44,050 bases of DNA from Escherichia phage BEU33, in the sequence record OM632667.1; one strand, given 5' to 3'. The translations under genes were made by a program, and so were the position numbers. Shown here piece by piece: positions 2,780-44,050 of this stretch (position 1 is the stretch's first letter; every line of letters starts with the position of its first letter). The notes below the pieces were generated by a model. It was given only the letters and a program-made list of their open reading frames with translations. It did not search any database and was not told the DNA's origin.

Positions 2780-2814
2780 GTATGCTATTAACTTTAGTAC
2801 CACAGGGTTTAACT

Positions 2815-3855
2815 ATGAGCTTACTTACATCCCTCATCAGCCATCAGATATGGCTGCAACGCACCGCATCCGGTGAGGTGAAAGACCTCACACCGTTCAT
2901 TCAGGAGATGCGGGATGAAATTAAACGGCAGGTGCTGTTATTCGGTGACGACGGTCGTAGCACTGCGCGACTGAATAAATTGTTACGCGACCTTGAGGAA
3001 GCACTAACCGGACTTACGGGCGACTGGCAGACAAAGCTGACAGAAGACCTTAAGGAACTGGCGGCGTATGAGGCCGAGTGGAACGTAAAGACTCTGACCG
3101 CCAACGTTAACGCGGAATTTGTTACCCCTACCGCGGAACAGGTGTGGGCCGCTGCCGAGTTTCAGCCATTATCGTTGAGTGACAAGCCCGTTGATTTCAC
3201 TAAGCTGATGGACGGCTGGGGTGAAACAGAAGTCGCGCGCCTGGTAACCGGCGTTAAGATGGGCTTTGTACAAGGCCAAACCACACGGCAGATTGTTAAG
3301 AACGTCGTAGGCGCTGGCGGACTGGCGGACATCTCTGAGCGTAACGCGGCCACCGTAATCCGTACTGCACTGTCTCACGTATCCAACGAAGCACGTAACG
3401 AGACGTACCGCCAGAACGACGACATCATCGAGAAATATGAGTGGGTGTCTACGCTGGACAGCCGTACCAGTACTTGCAGGGCCAGAGACGGAATGACGTG
3501 GGAAATCGGTAAAGGTCCGATGCCACCAGCCCATCCTAATTGCCGAAGTACCACTGCACCGGTAATCAGTTCAGAGTTCGACTTCCTTGATAAAGGCGCA
3601 AAACGTGCGGCTAAGGGTGCGGACGGCGGTACTCAGGTAAGCGCAGACACCACTTACTACGAGTTCCTTAAACAACAACCGGCGTGGTTTCAGGACCAGG
3701 CCCTCGGCCCGGTGCGAGGTAAGATTTTCCGTAACAGCGGTATATCGCCGGAAGAGTTTCGCGTAATATCTGTAGATGGTTTCGGGAATCCGCTCACGCT
3801 TAAGCAGATGGCGGAACTCGATAAACGTGTTGCTGATTATCTGAAAGGGGAATAA
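2815..3855 (+). CDS. head morphogenesis protein (Mu F / SPP1 gp7-like minor head protein)
   Basis: Position after portal, size; ATG 2815 preferred over ORF-track ATG 2782 which sits inside the hairpin tail without RBS. Confidence 0.5.
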   Translation: MSLLTSLISHQIWLQRTASGEVKDLTPFIQEMRDEIKRQVLLFGDDGRSTARLNKLLRDLEEALTGLTGDWQTKLTEDLKELAAYEAEWNVKTLTANVNAEFVTPTAEQVWAAAEFQPLSLSDKPVDFTKLMDGWGETEVARLVTGVKMGFVQGQTTRQIVKNVVGAGGLADISERNAATVIRTALSHVSNEARNETYRQNDDIIEKYEWVSTLDSRTSTCRARDGMTWEIGKGPMPPAHPNCRSTTAPVISSEFDFLDKGAKRAAKGADGGTQVSADTTYYEFLKQQPAWFQDQALGPVRGKIFRNSGISPEEFRVISVDGFGNPLTLKQMAELDKRVADYLKGE

Positions 3856-3907
3856 TGATGGGCTTTTTCAAAGTAACTGATGTACCGTCGCGTCGCGTAG
3901 TCCAGTC

Positions 3908-4309
3908 GTGTCTGGCTCTGGCGAGAACGTGGTGTTTATTGAAGATGAAAGTGTACTCGGTACACCAGTAGACGATATGCCGTTTGCAGACAAGACAGGT
4001 ATCGCACTCTCTGCCGCTGGTATGCTTTATGAAATTCCGTATCTGGCGGACGCTGGTGACGTGTATTTCTCTGTGCAACCGAAAGACACTGAACTTACAG
4101 ATGGCAGCGCAACTATCACTGTCGAAGTTAAGGCGGGTAAAGCACCGTATGCTCTGACCTGGTACAAAGACGGTAAGGAAGTGGTAAACGCCCCGGAAGA
4201 GGCCTTGTCTCTGACGGTTAATGCAGTTGGTGAATACTTCGTTAAAGTTACCGATGCTGATGGTGTAGAGGCTGTCAGTAAAGCTGCGAAGGTCACTAAG
4301 CCCGAATGA
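3908..4309 (+). CDS. Ig-like domain protein, possible capsid accessory/decoration
   Basis: C-terminal motif LTWYKDGKEV..GEYFVKVTDADG typical of bacterial Ig-like domains; start is GTG with no RBS, so start is uncertain. Confidence 0.45.
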   Translation: MSGSGENVVFIEDESVLGTPVDDMPFADKTGIALSAAGMLYEIPYLADAGDVYFSVQPKDTELTDGSATITVEVKAGKAPYALTWYKDGKEVVNAPEEALSLTVNAVGEYFVKVTDADGVEAVSKAAKVTKPE

Positions 4310-4312
4310 TAA

Positions 4313-4340
4313 AAGGCCCCATTAAGGGGCCTTAGTTTTT
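4313..4340 (+). terminator. rho-independent terminator AAGGCCCC-attaa-GGGGCCTT plus T-tract
   Basis: 8-bp GC stem and AGTTTTT directly after the Ig-like gene stop. Confidence 0.75.
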
Positions 4341-4346
4341 AACTGA

Positions 4347-4375
4347 ATAGTACCCTATTATATTGGTGTGTGCAA
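4347..4375 (-). promoter_or_regulatory. promoter-like module TTGCAC-N17-TACTAT on minus strand
   Basis: Same hexamers and spacing as modules at 13582-13610, 37491-37519, 38709-38737; here it faces the terminator, so function is unclear. Confidence 0.3.
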
Positions 4376-4427
4376 ACTATTTATTTACGTATTCCAGTTA
4401 TTCCACTCAATTGTAAATGTTGGAATA

Positions 4428-4443
4428 AACTATTCGAATAGTT
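4428..4443. promoter_or_regulatory. perfect 16-bp palindrome AACTATTCGAATAGTT, candidate operator
   Basis: Exact inverted repeat; overlaps the -35 of the promoter at 4442-4470; half-site ACTATTC recurs in other promoter modules. Confidence 0.5.
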
Positions 4444-4470
4444 GACTTTTCACTGAAAATGTGCTAAGCT
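4442..4470 (+). promoter_or_regulatory. sigma70-like promoter TTGACT-N17-TAAGCT
   Basis: Hexamers and 17-bp spacer read directly; -10 is weak. Confidence 0.45.
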
Positions 4471-4517
4471 CCACCTGAGCTTGTGAAGTATGAACAAGCG
4501 ACCGCGGCGCGGGCAGG
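4465..4517 (+). repeat. 53-bp exact direct repeat, copy 1 (copy 2 at 37402-37454)
   Basis: Identical 53-mer TAAGCTCCACCTGAGCTTGTGAAGTATGAACAAGCGACCGCGGCGCGGGCAGG at both loci. Confidence 0.85.
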
Positions 4518-4677
4518 TAACGGAGCGGGACGTAAGTCCTGAGTGTAGTTACGCTGACGCGTTCGGAAGGGCCATACTCTATTGCTTGTGTAAAAAGTAA
4601 CTGGTTTACTGAGATTACGCCGTTTCTATGTTTAAATTATAAGGACTAGCGCCCCGCTTTAAGGCGGGGCTTTACTT
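4477..4677 (+). ncRNA. candidate small RNA or regulatory leader
   Basis: About 200 nt between promoter 4442-4470 and terminator 4651-4677 with no ORF of 60 aa or more; begins with the 53-bp repeat. Confidence 0.3.
4651..4677 (+). terminator. rho-independent terminator GCCCCGC-tttaag-GCGGGGC plus TTTACTT
   Basis: Perfect 7-bp GC stem followed by T-rich tract. Confidence 0.65.
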
Positions 4678-4694
4678 ATCGAGAAAGGGGAAAC

Positions 4695-5081
4695 ATGAAT
4701 CTTAAAGCAACTGTCGTGGCAGGAGCATGTTTCATCATCCTGGCTTACACACACGGCATTTATCAGTACCGCAGCGGCTGGCACGAAGGCCGCGCTAATC
4801 TCGTTTCGCAGCAACAGCAGAAAGCACAGGCCGAGTTAGCGAAGAAAACACAACGGCAGCAGCAAGATGAATCAAAGGCCGCCGCCGCTGACAACGAAGG
4901 CAAGACGAAATCAGAGGTGATTACCCGTGAAGTCGTTAAGTACATTAAAACGCCTGGTCGCAGCGTGTGCACTTTTGACGATGCTCGCGTCCTGCTCAAG
5001 TCCCGCGCCGTCGCCAACGCCAATTCCATCTCCGGATACGACGATGATGCAGCCGCCGTGCAAGCTGGCGCCACCAAGTAG
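4695..5081 (+). CDS. i-spanin (Rz-like)
   Basis: N-terminal transmembrane segment then Q/A/K-rich coiled-coil-like region; contains an embedded +1 lipoprotein ORF; RBS AAAGGGG. Confidence 0.65.
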   Translation: MNLKATVVAGACFIILAYTHGIYQYRSGWHEGRANLVSQQQQKAQAELAKKTQRQQQDESKAAAADNEGKTKSEVITREVVKYIKTPGRSVCTFDDARVLLKSRAVANANSISGYDDDAAAVQAGATK

Positions 5082-5190
5082 TGACGCGGACGAGGATTTA
5101 GCTATCGACGTTCAGAACGCCGAATGCGTACGGCAACTGAGACTGAAAGTGTTCATGTTGCAGGATTACGTGAGGAATATTCTGGAATAG
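4927..5190 (+). CDS. o-spanin (Rz1-like outer-membrane lipoprotein)
   Basis: Signal peptide with lipobox LASC, proline-rich mature part; starts in +1 frame inside Rz and runs past its stop; GTG start with RBS GAGGTG. Confidence 0.6.
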   Translation: MKSLSTLKRLVAACALLTMLASCSSPAPSPTPIPSPDTTMMQPPCKLAPPSSDADEDLAIDVQNAECVRQLRLKVFMLQDYVRNILE

Positions 5191-5272
5191 TTGCCTTGCA
5201 TGTTGGAATAATTTATTCTTGACATGTAAATCCGGGTGGCCCGGATTCCAACGTCCAGGGGACATACTGACT

Positions 5273-5974
5273 ATGAATCGTTTTTTACGTTATCCGTTCC
5301 AGGAAGAAGCTGGAGCAGAAGATAAAGCTGGTGGCGGTGACGCTCCTAAAATGTTCACCGCTGAAGAAGTTCAGGCGCTGATTGAGAAAGAAGTTGCCGG
5401 GCTTAAGGCCAATCAGGAAGCATTGCTGGCGGAGAAGAAAGAAGCCGCCCGTAAAGCAAAAGAGGCCGAAGAAGAACGGCAGCGTGCGCACCAGGAGGCG
5501 TTAAAGGCCGCCGGTAAGATGGACGAGTTTGAAAAGACGATTCGTAGCCAGTATGACCCGGTGTTAGCCGAGAAAGATGGCCGCATCTCCAAAATGGCAG
5601 AGCGCATCCTCGGCAGCGAACGTAAAGCGGTGCTAGGCTCTTTCGCGGGTGACTTTATTACCCCGGAAGCAGTGGACATCCTTGCGCCGTTCGTTAAGAC
5701 TGAGTTCGAAGGTGATGATGTGGTTACTAAGTTTGTCGGCGCAGACGGTAACGTAATCACGACTGACCCGGAACAGTTCCGCAAATACCTGCGCGAACAC
5801 AAAGCGTTTTCGCATTTGATTAAAGCAAATGCAGCTTCCGGCGGCGGGGCTTCCGGTGGCAAAGGCGGCGGGGCCGCACCAGCGTTTAAAGACATGAGTG
5901 AAGCAGAGCGTTTAGCCCTGTATAAATCGAACCCTGCCGAATTTGAACGGCAACTTAAAGCCCTGAGGAAATAA
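5273..5974 (+). CDS. scaffolding protein
   Basis: Charged A/E/K-rich helical-looking protein immediately upstream of major capsid gene; ATG 5273 preferred over TTG 5219. Confidence 0.5.
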   Translation: MNRFLRYPFQEEAGAEDKAGGGDAPKMFTAEEVQALIEKEVAGLKANQEALLAEKKEAARKAKEAEEERQRAHQEALKAAGKMDEFEKTIRSQYDPVLAEKDGRISKMAERILGSERKAVLGSFAGDFITPEAVDILAPFVKTEFEGDDVVTKFVGADGNVITTDPEQFRKYLREHKAFSHLIKANAASGGGASGGKGGGAAPAFKDMSEAERLALYKSNPAEFERQLKALRK

Positions 5975-5976
5975 TA

Positions 5977-7026
5977 ATGGCAATTACCACTATCGGCGAT
6001 ATCGTAACTGGCAACATCCCGGTCCTGGCGTCTTATATGACCGAGGACCCGGTAGAAAAAACCGCGTTCTTCCAGTCTGGTATTCTCACCCCGACCCCAT
6101 ACGCCGCCGAGATTGCCCGCGGCCCGTCCAACGTCGCTAATATTCCTTTCTGGAAAGCGATTGATACCTCTATCGAGCCGAACTACTCGAACGACGTATA
6201 CCAGGACATCGCCACCCCGCGTAACGTGCAGACCGGCGAGATGATGGCGCGCGTTGCGTACCTGAACGAAGGTTTCGGTCAGGCGGATTTGACCGTTGAA
6301 CTGACCAGCCAGAACCCGCTGCAATCCGTAGCGTCACGTCTGGATAACTTCTGGCAGCGTCAGGCACAACGCCGTCTGATTGCTACCGCGCTCGGGCTGT
6401 ACAATGACAACGTAGCCGCTACCGACGCATACCACGAGCAGAATGACATGGTAATCGACGTGTCTGCTACTCTGGGCTTCGATGCGGGCGCGTTCATCGA
6501 CGCTACCCAGACTATGGGCGATGCTCTGATGGGCAACGGCGGTGAAGTGCTGGGGGCTATCGCGATGCATAGCTTCGTTTATGCGCAGGCACGTAAGCAG
6601 CAGCTTATCGACTTCATCCGTGACGCGGACAACAACACCATGTTCGCCACCTACCAGGGCTACCGCGTGATTGTTGACGACAGCATGACCGTAGTCGGCA
6701 CTGGCCCGACCCGTAAGTTCATCTCCATCATCTTCGGCAACGGCGCTATCGGTTACGGTGAAGGTTCTCCGTCCAACCCGCTGGAATACGAGCGCGAAGC
6801 GTCCCGCGGCAACGGCGGCGGCGTTGAAACCCTGTGGACCCGTAAGACCTGGTTGCTACATCCGTTTGGTTACAGCTTCACCAGCGCGGTAATCACTGGC
6901 AACGGTACCGAGACTATCGCCCGCTCTGCTTCATGGCAGGACCTGGCGAACGCCTCCAACTGGAACCGTGTGGTTGACCGTAAGCATGTACCGATTGCCT
7001 TCCTGGTAACTGGTGTCAGGGCTTAA
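5977..7026 (+). CDS. major capsid protein
   Basis: 349-aa ORF after scaffold, followed by a strong terminator; typical position and size. Confidence 0.7.
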   Translation: MAITTIGDIVTGNIPVLASYMTEDPVEKTAFFQSGILTPTPYAAEIARGPSNVANIPFWKAIDTSIEPNYSNDVYQDIATPRNVQTGEMMARVAYLNEGFGQADLTVELTSQNPLQSVASRLDNFWQRQAQRRLIATALGLYNDNVAATDAYHEQNDMVIDVSATLGFDAGAFIDATQTMGDALMGNGGEVLGAIAMHSFVYAQARKQQLIDFIRDADNNTMFATYQGYRVIVDDSMTVVGTGPTRKFISIIFGNGAIGYGEGSPSNPLEYEREASRGNGGGVETLWTRKTWLLHPFGYSFTSAVITGNGTETIARSASWQDLANASNWNRVVDRKHVPIAFLVTGVRA

Positions 7027-40084: not shown

Positions 40085-40393
40085 TTGGATAAATTTACTG
40101 AAACAGTGACAGGCTGGCTTCTCGCTGCCGCGCTAGCCGGAGGGGTAATCGGACTACGACAACATAAGTCTGTTATTTCTGGCCCCATCGACGGATTCTG
40201 CTTTATCGCAACCGGCTTCACTTGCGCTGTATTCGGCGCGCCTCTTGCCGCTCAATGGTTCGGTATTACCGGAGAGCGCGAGATAGCTGGCCTCGGATTC
40301 ATCATCGCAATTCTCTGGATGCCCATCTATTCCCGTCTCTCCGGTATCGTCTCTGGAGAATACATCGCTCGTCGAGGAGGCACAGATGAATGA
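40085..40393 (+). CDS. holin (three predicted TM segments)
   Basis: Three hydrophobic segments, charged C-terminus; first gene of lysis cassette; TTG start with GGAGG. Confidence 0.55.
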   Translation: MDKFTETVTGWLLAAALAGGVIGLRQHKSVISGPIDGFCFIATGFTCAVFGAPLAAQWFGITGEREIAGLGFIIAILWMPIYSRLSGIVSGEYIARRGGTDE

Positions 40394-40658
40394 GTTATTC
40401 TGGTTCGGTGGTATGCTGGCAATCGGGGGCACATCGCTGTTTAATGTGTATCATCCCAGCGTGGACGACGGATTATTTGGCCGGGTGCTCTATATCCTGA
40501 CTGCCATCGTCTGTGCTGCCGGATGTATCCACCTGTTACAGGGCAGCATGTCACCAACGCTGCCTGAGACGTTAATCACATTAGTTGCGCTGCGTCAGAT
40601 TCGCCAGGTGTGGCTGTCATACGGAGGACATAAGCGTGTCTCGAAATATTTCAGATAA
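40386..40658 (+). CDS. second holin-like membrane protein (holin or antiholin)
   Basis: Two hydrophobic segments; overlaps both holin stop and lysozyme start. Confidence 0.45.
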   Translation: MNELFWFGGMLAIGGTSLFNVYHPSVDDGLFGRVLYILTAIVCAAGCIHLLQGSMSPTLPETLITLVALRQIRQVWLSYGGHKRVSKYFR

Positions 40659-41124
40659 TGGATTGCATTTTACCGCCGCGTTCGAGGGATTCCGAGGAAC
40701 TGCGTATCGCGCTACACCGAATGAGAAGTACCTGACTATTGGGTATGGAAGCTATGGCCCGCATGTTAAGGCGGGGCAGACCATCACTCCAGGACAAGGC
40801 CTCCTGTTACTTAATCGCGATATGGCTAAAGCCGTAGCTGCGGTTGATGCGGCAGCGCACCATTCACTGACACAGGCACAGTTCGACGCTGTGTGTGACC
40901 TGGTCTACAACGCAGGCGCTGGCGTGATTGCCGCTACCACGGGCACAGGTAAGGCGCTGCGTTCTGGTGACATCGAGACGCTGCGGGCTAAGCTGACACT
41001 GTTCATCAACCAGAACGGCAGACCACTACTCGGCCTGCGTCGCCGTACAGCAGGTCGTCTGGCGCTGTTTGACGGTAAACCGTGGCAAGAGGCGGAGGCA
41101 ATTGGGCGCGCGGTGAAAGGTTGA
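40636..41124 (+). CDS. endolysin, lysozyme (GH24-like muramidase)
   Basis: Pattern ISDNGLHFTAAFEGFRG..YLTIGYG..QFDAVCDLVYNAG resembles the P22 gp19/T4 lysozyme family; GTG 40636 with RBS GGAGGA preferred. Confidence 0.85.
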   Translation: MSRNISDNGLHFTAAFEGFRGTAYRATPNEKYLTIGYGSYGPHVKAGQTITPGQGLLLLNRDMAKAVAAVDAAAHHSLTQAQFDAVCDLVYNAGAGVIAATTGTGKALRSGDIETLRAKLTLFINQNGRPLLGLRRRTAGRLALFDGKPWQEAEAIGRAVKG

Positions 41125-43530: not shown

Positions 43531-44040
43531 ATGAAGCTGAAACTTAAGCAGCCATCGCCAGAGGTGGTGCAAGCTGCACATGAAGAAGCTGTTAGCGCAA
43601 ACCGTCGCCGTAAACAACCGCGCGGTAAACAGAGCCTTTATCAATCATCCCGTAATTCCGCTGCGCTGTGGGACCCGGACTATTGCGACGAATTGATTCG
43701 TTTCTTTGACCGCACGTCGTGGGAGCTTGTGCCAACGTCTAAGGGTGATGAACGCCCACTGATTCAGGATAAGCCGCCGTCACTGGCCCGCTTCGCCTTA
43801 CACATCGGCGTAACTATCCCGATAATTAAGCTGTGGCTGCGCGAGATTCCCGCATTTGCAGAAGCATACGAAACCGCCCAGGCTCTGGAAGAGGCATACT
43901 TCACTGAGACAGGGGCTGCGGGCATCTCGGCTACGTTTGCTGCCGCGAAACTGGGCCTGAATAAAACAGTTGTCGCCGAAGAAGTACGCGACGAGCCAAT
44001 CAGCGAAGTAACAATTAAGGTGGTGTCCGGTGAACGTTAA
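43531..44040 (+). CDS. terS: terminase small subunit
   Basis: Immediately upstream of terL start; HTH-like middle region; ATG 43531 with RBS AGGGGA preferred over GTG 43492. Confidence 0.6.
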   Translation: MKLKLKQPSPEVVQAAHEEAVSANRRRKQPRGKQSLYQSSRNSAALWDPDYCDELIRFFDRTSWELVPTSKGDERPLIQDKPPSLARFALHIGVTIPIIKLWLREIPAFAEAYETAQALEEAYFTETGAAGISATFAAAKLGLNKTVVAEEVRDEPISEVTIKVVSGER

Positions 44041-44050
44041 TATCACGGCA
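44030..44050 (+). CDS. terL: 5' start of terL (continues at position 1 if the molecule is circular or permuted)
   Basis: GTG 44030 preceded by AAGGTGGTG, overlapping terS stop; frame runs without stop into frame 1 at position 1. Confidence 0.5.

Follow-up and report, generated by a model that had tools for sequence, protein, structure and literature searches.

Spanin systems described to date and the locus in phage BEU33

Two-component spanins, in the generic sense of Summer et al. (2007) and Kongari et al. (2018), pair an inner-membrane protein bearing an N-terminal transmembrane segment (the i-spanin) with a lipoprotein (the o-spanin), the two being encoded by adjacent genes of which the i-spanin gene comes first. 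The locus considered here, positions 4695-5190 of a 44,050-base stretch of DNA from Escherichia phage BEU33 (sequence record OM632667.1; the whole stretch is referred to below as the window), displays each of these features and very probably encodes a two-component spanin of the family named after phage Jersey. As catalogued by Kongari et al. (2018), the 'Jersey' family has 27 members of overlapped architecture, including those of Jersey, SETP3, K1G, K1H, K1ind1-3, HK578 and SO-1 (PMC6139136). In phage Jersey itself the two genes overlap by 155 bp, the cysteines of the o-spanin are constant within the family at positions 45 and 67, and Jersey-type homologues whose genes overlap by 8 bp are classed as 'separated' (PMC6139136). 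Separately, the genome announcement of phage Schulenberg reports spanins that lie apart from the holin and the endolysin (PMC6763661).

Three further systems bear on the comparison. In the Rz/Rz1 system of phage lambda, as in the window, an inner-membrane protein and a +1-frame outer-membrane lipoprotein are specified by the same DNA, and the mechanism is presumably the same; lambda differs in that Rz1 is fully embedded in Rz, that the pair comes after S and R within the lysis cassette, and that Rz1 lacks the long C-terminal helix of the window o-spanin. The LysB/LysC genes of phage P2 overlap in the manner seen in the window, with the o-spanin gene passing the i-spanin stop, and the P2 lysis genes likewise lie within a late morphogenesis operon, but the P2 spanins stay adjacent to the holin and endolysin and LysB shows no detectable similarity to the window i-spanin. 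Finally, pseT.3/pseT.2 of phage T4 provide a precedent for spanins unlinked to holin and endolysin, and the T4 o-spanin also has a predicted C-terminal helix (PMC6139136), although the T4 genes are separated rather than overlapped and represent another family.

Set beside these systems, the pair at 4695-5190 is, by alignment and gene layout, one more member of the published Jersey family. It shares with that family the overlap of 155 nucleotides, Cys45 and Cys67 of the o-spanin, and the layout of secondary structure including a helical o-spanin C-terminus, and both of its proteins align over their full length with those of SO-1 and of members of the genus Jerseyvirus. Apart from the lipobox, which reads TMLASC in the window and LTLSAC in many Kagunavirus relatives with the cysteine shifted by one residue, nothing substantive sets the window pair apart from the family.

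Two export signals in overlapping frames

The features of the spanin locus on which the assignment rests are as follows.

4695-5081, plus strand: i-spanin gene of the Jersey family, ATG start, 128 amino acids
4707-4763, plus strand: codons of i-spanin residues 5-23 (ATVVAGACFIILAYTHGIY), an N-terminal transmembrane segment by hydropathy, helical in the structure model
4913-4919, plus strand: Shine-Dalgarno motif AGAGGTG of the o-spanin gene, inside the i-spanin coding sequence and 7 nucleotides before the GTG
4927-5190, plus strand: o-spanin gene, +1 frame, GTG start, precursor of 87 amino acids, mature part of 65 amino acids
4927-5081, plus strand: dual-coding overlap of the two spanin genes, 155 nucleotides
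4984-4995, plus strand: o-spanin lipobox codons L20-A21-S22-C23, with Cys23 as the lipidated residue and Ser at +2

The i-spanin starts MNLK-ATVVAGACFIILAYTHGIY, and its Kyte-Doolittle hydropathy over 19 residues reaches a maximum of 1.59 at residue 5, where 1.6 is the usual threshold for a transmembrane segment; hydrophobic segments equivalent to residues 5-23 are found in all relatives compared. The single-sequence AlphaFold model of the protein (mean predicted local distance difference test score, pLDDT, 62) consists of one long helix spanning residues 3-84 and a second helix spanning residues 94-107. An initial annotation of this DNA, made from its letters alone, had proposed an i-spanin-like protein with an N-terminal transmembrane segment and a coiled-coil-like periplasmic part. 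The former is borne out by hydropathy and model alike; of the latter the helical part stands and the coiled coil much less so, a crude heptad count giving 19% of a/d positions as strongly hydrophobic in the best register versus 37-50% in lambda Rz. Among the cysteines of the periplasmic part, C92 is the sole one invariant across 11 relatives.

The o-spanin is specified in the +1 frame and its open reading frame (ORF) continues 109 nucleotides beyond the i-spanin stop, as the same annotation had noted in saying that the inner frame extends past the outer one. Its signal reads MKSLSTLKRLVAACALLTMLAS up to the lipidated cysteine, a basic n-region being followed by a hydrophobic core and the lipobox L-A-S-C, and the mature part begins CSSPAPSPTPIPSPD, with proline making up 33% of its first 30 residues; the LASC lipobox and the proline-rich character had both been correctly recognized from the outset. 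When a rule-based scan for lipoprotein signals was applied to all six frames of all 44,050 bases, this ORF was the only one returned. The signal peptidase II site and the transmembrane helix, on whose absence the initial annotation was to be abandoned, are thus both found, the one by rule-based scanning and the other by hydropathy. Under the sorting rule of the Lol system, a residue other than Asp at +2 directs a lipoprotein to the outer membrane, and since the +2 residue here is Ser, the o-spanin is predicted to localize to the outer membrane. Its single-sequence model (mean pLDDT 63.5) comprises a signal helix at residues 3-21, a disordered proline-rich linker and a C-terminal helix at residues 55-86, the latter modelled with the best confidence. 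The C-terminal helix is amphipathic and no hydrophobic C-terminal segment follows the lipoprotein signal; with two proteins encoded, a unimolecular spanin of the T1 gp11 type was considered and rejected.

Profile comparisons place both products among proteins labelled as spanins. The i-spanin matches phrog_2536 ('Rz-like spanin') over residues 1-127 (E=9.2e-55), and the o-spanin matches two families bearing the same label, phrog_1267 over residues 8-86 (E=9.5e-19) and phrog_5672 over residues 41-87 only (E=4.6e-30). The o-spanin also shows a weak resemblance to P2 LysC (33% identity over 76 amino acids, pairwise E=3e-6). The designation 'Rz/Rz1-type', initially given to the pair, therefore holds in the generic sense of a two-component spanin and fails in the narrower one, the i-spanin having no detectable similarity to either lambda Rz or P2 LysB and the genes being overlapped in the manner of P2 LysB/LysC rather than embedded. 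Specifically, the pair does not belong to the lambda Rz/Rz1 family, to which it shows no significant similarity (hhalign probability 30% for Rz1) and from which the position of its o-spanin gene, which is not embedded, also separates it. Nor does it belong to the P2 LysB/LysC family, given a LysC score below the cut-off and no similarity to LysB.

Conservation and annotation of the +1 frame

The locus was compared with two sets of relatives, one of ten GenBank records (Kagunavirus, Jerseyvirus, Cornellvirus, phiEap-2, a Serratia phage, a Klebsiella phage and two Dhillonvirus) and one of 80 IMG/VR viral contigs retrieved with an i-spanin profile. Within the genus the spanin region is 96-99% identical to that of many Kagunavirus Escherichia phages, in whose records both ORFs are annotated as spanins. 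A +1-frame ORF with a start preceded by a Shine-Dalgarno motif, a hydrophobic signal and a lipobox cysteine is present in 80/80 IMG/VR loci and in all ten GenBank relatives, and a motif resembling the Shine-Dalgarno sequence stands ahead of the o-spanin start in each of 11 phages compared (11/11). The lipobox itself varies (LASC, LSAC, LSGC, LNGC, LTGC, ITGC, MSAC and others), while the +2 residue is never Asp in the 80 loci. The mature protein measures 60-68 residues among the relatives and retains two further invariant cysteines, which in the window are Cys45 and Cys67.

Clades differ in the sequence of the signal peptide, in the position of the start and its codon (GTG or ATG) and in the extent of overlap (4 to 173 nucleotides). 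The overlap is 155 nucleotides in most Kagunavirus and Jerseyvirus loci, and in Cornellvirus-like phages the two genes share only 4-8 nucleotides, the o-spanin gene being almost entirely clear of the i-spanin gene. Because the lipoprotein features are kept while the signal sequence, the start codon and the overlap diverge, the comparison indicates that the o-spanin product is under selection and that the +1 frame is no chance opening.

This conclusion has consequences for annotation. Many deposited o-spanin coding sequences begin at an internal ATG (41-48 amino acids, MMQPPCK...) and so are without the signal peptide and lipobox, and in other records the gene is left unannotated. Examples among the relatives, each a counterpart of window 4927-5190, are the following.

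Locus L001, 6645-6791: truncated o-spanin coding sequence
Locus L006, 2850-2996: truncated o-spanin coding sequence
Locus L002, 2871-2996: truncated o-spanin coding sequence

The PHROG 5672 profile, at 47 residues, likewise covers just the C-terminal part of the o-spanin. The correct start in the window is the GTG at 4927, and many records, together with PHROG 5672, carry an o-spanin that is truncated and missing its signal peptide. The record of phage PIZ SAE-01E2 labels the i-spanin as the o-spanin and vice versa.

Probable spanin function and alternative explanations

The family is also found outside the head module. In temperate Klebsiella phages an i-spanin 40% identical to that of the window (E=3e-26; Klebsiella phage 2 LV-2017) is encoded directly after the lysozyme, where its gene overlaps the endolysin stop codon, the canonical lysis-cassette site, and has a +1 lipoprotein ORF of its own.

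Locus L008, 1956-2963: Klebsiella temperate-phage spanins overlapping the endolysin stop
Locus L215, 1117-1958: Klebsiella temperate-phage spanins overlapping the endolysin stop

In the window, no spanin-like ORF follows the endolysin gene, as judged from the ORF list and the six-frame lipoprotein scan, and no other spanin candidate was found anywhere in the genome. It is this endolysin-adjacent context in Klebsiella phages, together with the lack of another candidate, that makes a spanin function very likely.

The mechanism proposed for the pair is modelled on lambda Rz/Rz1, which has been characterized experimentally. The N-terminal helix would hold the 128-residue i-spanin in the inner membrane, with a mostly helical domain projecting into the periplasm, and the 87-residue o-spanin precursor would be exported, lipidated at Cys23, cleaved by signal peptidase II and, having Ser rather than Asp at +2, taken by the Lol system to the inner leaflet of the outer membrane. 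From the lambda model we infer that the two proteins interact: their C-terminal parts would bind each other, so that the complex crosses the periplasm through the peptidoglycan mesh, probably stabilized by intermolecular disulfides, for which the invariant periplasmic cysteines Rz C92 and Rz1 C45 and C67 are available. Once the holins (40085-40658) had released the endolysin (about 40636-41124) and the wall had been degraded, the freed spanin complexes would fuse or disrupt the outer membrane and thereby complete lysis.

Several observations weigh against this interpretation. The transmembrane hydropathy of the i-spanin lies just at the threshold, the heptad character of its periplasmic helix is weak, and the structure models of both proteins are single-sequence models of low confidence. 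Neither lambda Rz nor P2 LysB showed any detectable similarity to the i-spanin, whether compared directly or by profile (lambda Rz gave no BLASTP alignment and an hhalign probability of 1.5%), and neither the i-spanin nor the o-spanin has a Pfam or NCBIfam match above threshold, the o-spanin scoring 15.2 bits against the LysC equivalog NF038368 (P2_Rz1), below the curated cut-off of 27. Among PDB sequences, searched by profile, no relative came to light, and hence no solved structure in the family. No experimental test of any Jersey-family spanin was found in the literature, and the functional assignment draws on architecture, context and family labels.

Some of these same observations could be read as pointing to an envelope system of another role, such as superinfection exclusion, in which a lipoprotein acts with a membrane partner, after the example of T5 Llp or Cor proteins. 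Exclusion is an established function of some phage lipoproteins, and such a role would explain why the pair lies at a distance from the lysis cassette, unlinked to holin and endolysin, and why its i-spanin lacks homology to experimentally characterized spanins. Unlinked spanins are not without precedent, however, as T4 pseT.3/pseT.2 attest; the genome would under this explanation be left with no spanin candidate at all; members of the same family stand directly after the endolysin in Klebsiella phages; and the conserved paired architecture and pattern of periplasmic cysteines are typical of two-component spanins. The o-spanin, moreover, resembles P2 LysC. An exclusion system is accordingly regarded as very improbable. 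Less credible still, to the point of being almost negligible, is the notion that the +1 ORF is a chance open frame in and after a single membrane-protein gene, with only the outer ORF being real. The ORF is indeed short, begins with GTG and starts inside another gene, and many records annotate a version of 41-48 amino acids or nothing, but the Shine-Dalgarno motif, start, signal, lipobox cysteine and two more invariant cysteines are kept in 80/80 loci and all GenBank relatives, and the Cornellvirus-like gene lies nearly outside the i-spanin gene. A two-component spanin of the Jersey family thus remains the explanation that best accommodates the locus.

Placement within the head module

Kagunavirus phages are virulent siphoviruses of E. 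coli assigned to the subfamily Guernseyvirinae, and the window constitutes one genome of this genus, complete and circularly permuted. When the last and first 350 nucleotides of the window are joined, they align as a single piece to relatives across terS/terL; because the joined ends align contiguously, the window is taken to be a circular permutation of the whole genome. The window ends fall within terL, which has an apparent GTG start at 44030 (44030-44050) and continues across the junction into 1-1251. The genes flanking the spanin pair, and the lysis genes to which it is not linked, are listed below.

2782-3855: MuF-like head morphogenesis gene, upstream of the spanins
3908-4309: gene for a Hoc-like decoration protein with an Ig domain, upstream of the spanins
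5273-5974: scaffold gene, downstream of the spanins
5977-7026: major capsid gene, downstream of the scaffold gene
40085-41124, plus strand: lysis cassette, unlinked to the spanins, from PHROG matches and ORFs
40085-40393 and 40386-40658, plus strand: two holin-like genes (phrog_2359 and phrog_2508, holin)
About 40636-41124, plus strand: endolysin gene, lysozyme-type (phrog_7/phrog_33703)

The position between the Ig-like and head morphogenesis genes and the scaffold gene, at about 7.6 kb from the holin-lysozyme cassette across the junction, was read correctly in the initial annotation: measured across the window ends, 7,621 nucleotides (44050-41124+4695) separate the endolysin stop from the i-spanin start, the spanins lying downstream of the cassette.

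The order head morphogenesis, spanins, scaffold is kept in 80/80 contigs and in every Guernseyvirinae and Dhillonvirus record examined, and the placement in the head module is common to Jerseyvirus, Cornellvirus, phiEap-2-like phages and Dhillonvirus. It is an old and conserved trait of the lineage and not a peculiarity of the window genome. Since the Klebsiella relatives of the same family sit at the endolysin, the location in the head module is, by this comparison of gene orders, specific to the Guernseyvirinae and Dhillonvirus lineages and no property of the family as a whole. The closest published counterpart is phage Schulenberg (also Schulenburg; MK931438), which is of the same genus and gene order as the window and 95.8% identical to it in DNA over the region. 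It differs in having an extra HNH endonuclease gene and a minus-strand gene for a sliding-clamp-like protein between the head genes and the spanins, and in its deposited o-spanin coding sequence, which has an internal ATG start, 48 amino acids and no signal peptide; its i-spanin was annotated by BLASTp against K1G. As both the family of Kongari et al. (2018) and the placement in Schulenberg match the window, the finding is one already known.

The junction beside the spanin cassette (window 4310-4390 and its counterparts in loci L001, L005, L006, L007 and L009) is a hot spot for the insertion of minus-strand cargo, which in Schulenburg comprises the sliding-clamp-like gene and HNH endonuclease, in S103 a DNA methyltransferase and in VSiA a transcriptional regulator. 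The window has no cargo gene at this junction. In Dhillonvirus the cargo sits instead between the o-spanin and scaffold genes, where SO-1 carries a RusA-like/clamp-like gene and JLBYU37 a gene for a hypothetical protein.

Putative transcription signals and a structured leader

The initial annotation had further held that the pair is expressed with the late structural genes rather than with the lysis cassette, the one element of its interpretation that is conjectural. Several terminator-like hairpins separate the spanin pair from both neighbouring modules, and these sequence elements show that the pair does not simply form part of one continuous head operon. The 385-nucleotide gap upstream of the i-spanin gene (4310-4694) holds the following features.

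4313-4333: bidirectional terminator-like hairpin that follows the Hoc-like gene and bounds the putative spanin unit on its upstream side
4391-4470, plus strand: conserved promoter-like block of 80 nucleotides with an array of GGAATA/TATTCC half-sites, of putative function
4500-4576, plus strand: conserved leader RNA hairpin of three stacked stems P1-P2-P3, covarying, about 65 nucleotides
4651-4670, plus strand: GC-rich hairpin with a U-rich tail (TTTACTTAT), ending 24 nucleotides before the i-spanin ATG

A terminator is annotated in phage Schulenburg at the place equivalent to 4313-4333. The promoter-like block has as its core TTGACT (4442-4447), a 17-nucleotide spacer and an extended -10 element TGc-TAAGCT (4462-4470), accompanied by the half-site arrays TATTCCA-GTTATTCCA, TGGAATAA and TATTCGAATA. 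In 45 distinct leaders from three Guernseyvirinae clades, the block has a fixed length of 80 nucleotides and lies some 200-230 nucleotides upstream of the i-spanin start. A strict sigma-70 scan of 3800-5600 called no promoter; it misses the block because the -10 hexamer matches at 3/6 positions only. The exact 8-mer TGGAATAA is mildly enriched (4 copies versus 1.2 expected), and the 12-mer ATGTTGGAATAA occurs at 4417 and 5200, so that its copies bracket the promoter core, the leader and the spanin genes; taken as a loose motif with two mismatches allowed, ATGTTGGAATAA shows no enrichment across the genome.

Thirteen diverse leader sequences, each folded on its own, give one and the same leader hairpin of 57-66 nucleotides, which is followed by an invariant motif GGAAGGG(C/U)C and which its G-U pairs assign to the sense strand. 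When a covariance model was built solely from Kagunavirus sequences, it found exactly one match per locus, also in Jerseyvirus, with E about 1e-5, and in the phiEap-2 clade, with E 0.018. In the resulting alignment 93.4% of cells are paired, as against at most 40% when the partners are slid, and 11 of 23 pairs show compensatory changes on both sides, values reached in 0/500 shuffles; the alignment was fitted to the covariance model, so these pairing figures lean towards structure. Folding of each sequence and the covariance model replaced RNAalifold, which on a plain MAFFT alignment of whole leaders, with the clades misaligned, recovered the last hairpin only. That last hairpin, at 4651-4670, also shows compensatory changes in its stem in Jerseyvirus (GCCCCGC/GCGGGGC versus GCCCGGC/GCCGGGC), and may act as a terminator or in the accessibility of the ribosome-binding site.

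A 36-residue ORF at 4490-4600 on the plus strand, over which relatives annotate a hypothetical protein of 36-39 amino acids, overlies the leader hairpin. It is probably no protein gene and was rejected as one, since Jerseyvirus lacks the start codon, the phiEap-2 clade does not maintain the reading frame with respect to the invariant GGAAGGGCC motif, and compensatory base-pair changes are seen in the region. Searched at the gathering threshold and at E<=1 over 4300-5300, Rfam returned only a chance-level match to SraG on the minus strand. A viral-contig scan for TTATTCCARTTATTCCA produced unrelated AT-rich matches, including giant-virus contigs, and a literature search on 'Jerseyvirinae' with Rz1, spanin or promoters yielded nothing relevant. 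Elsewhere in the window, the sole Rfam match at the gathering threshold is an int-alpA RNA (RF02996; 13629-13693, plus strand; 36.6 bits against a threshold of 35.8), which is intergenic, with a minus-strand cargo cluster on one side and the gene for the tail assembly chaperone on the other.

It is conceivable, if somewhat against the balance of expectation, that the spanin pair opens a transcription unit of its own, initiated at 4391-4470 and read through a structured leader of about 225 nucleotides (4471-4694), probably into the scaffold and capsid genes, with leader hairpins that may tune read-through, RNA processing or translation. The bidirectional terminator-like hairpin after the Hoc-like gene, the promoter-like block held at a fixed distance from the i-spanin gene in three clades, the covariation and sense-strand G-U pairs of the leader hairpin, and the compensatory changes in the hairpin next to the ribosome-binding site all speak for such a unit. 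Against it stand the weak -10 hexamer and the empty strict promoter scan, the possibility of terminator read-through from the upstream head genes, and the condition in Dhillonvirus, where the i-spanin and head morphogenesis genes overlap at the stop of the latter and leave no leader, such that a leader is not needed for spanin function. In Dhillonvirus, to judge from this overlap, the spanins are almost certainly co-expressed with the head genes. That the spanin genes begin a unit both dedicated and regulated, comprising the promoter-like block and the leader with its covarying hairpin and ending in a terminator-like hairpin that abuts the ribosome-binding site of the i-spanin gene, is a more doubtful proposition. 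Similarly, the leader could be an undescribed cis-acting RNA that times the expression of the spanin and capsid genes, although a regulatory role is offered only tentatively and would be judged rather unlikely at present; were it to have one, it may act by attenuation, by antitermination of the kind known from lambda PR'-6S-tR' or HK022 put, by RNase III processing or by control of translation.

Signals of a similar kind occur elsewhere, with promoter-like and terminator-like matches also lying between the endolysin gene and terS. The intergenic region between the o-spanin and scaffold genes (5183-5272, plus strand) is highly conserved across clades and holds a second GGAATA cluster, a TTGACA (5219-5224) and an invariant hairpin CCGGGTGGCCCGG (5232-5244), with an invariant GTCCAGGGGACAT ahead of the scaffold ATG.

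Significance for the Jersey family

Taken together, the gene structures, export signals, conservation and placement confirm the original observation of an overlapping spanin pair in the head gene cluster and, the statement on expression aside, support its interpretation, in a case where both the spanin family and its placement have already been published. What the finding contributes is one more Kagunavirus genome with a spanin family already catalogued and a gene order already in print, and only the structured leader RNA may be worth pursuing further. Jersey-type spanins, of which no member seems to have been experimentally tested, occur in hundreds of phages of E. coli and Salmonella that are candidates for therapeutic use.

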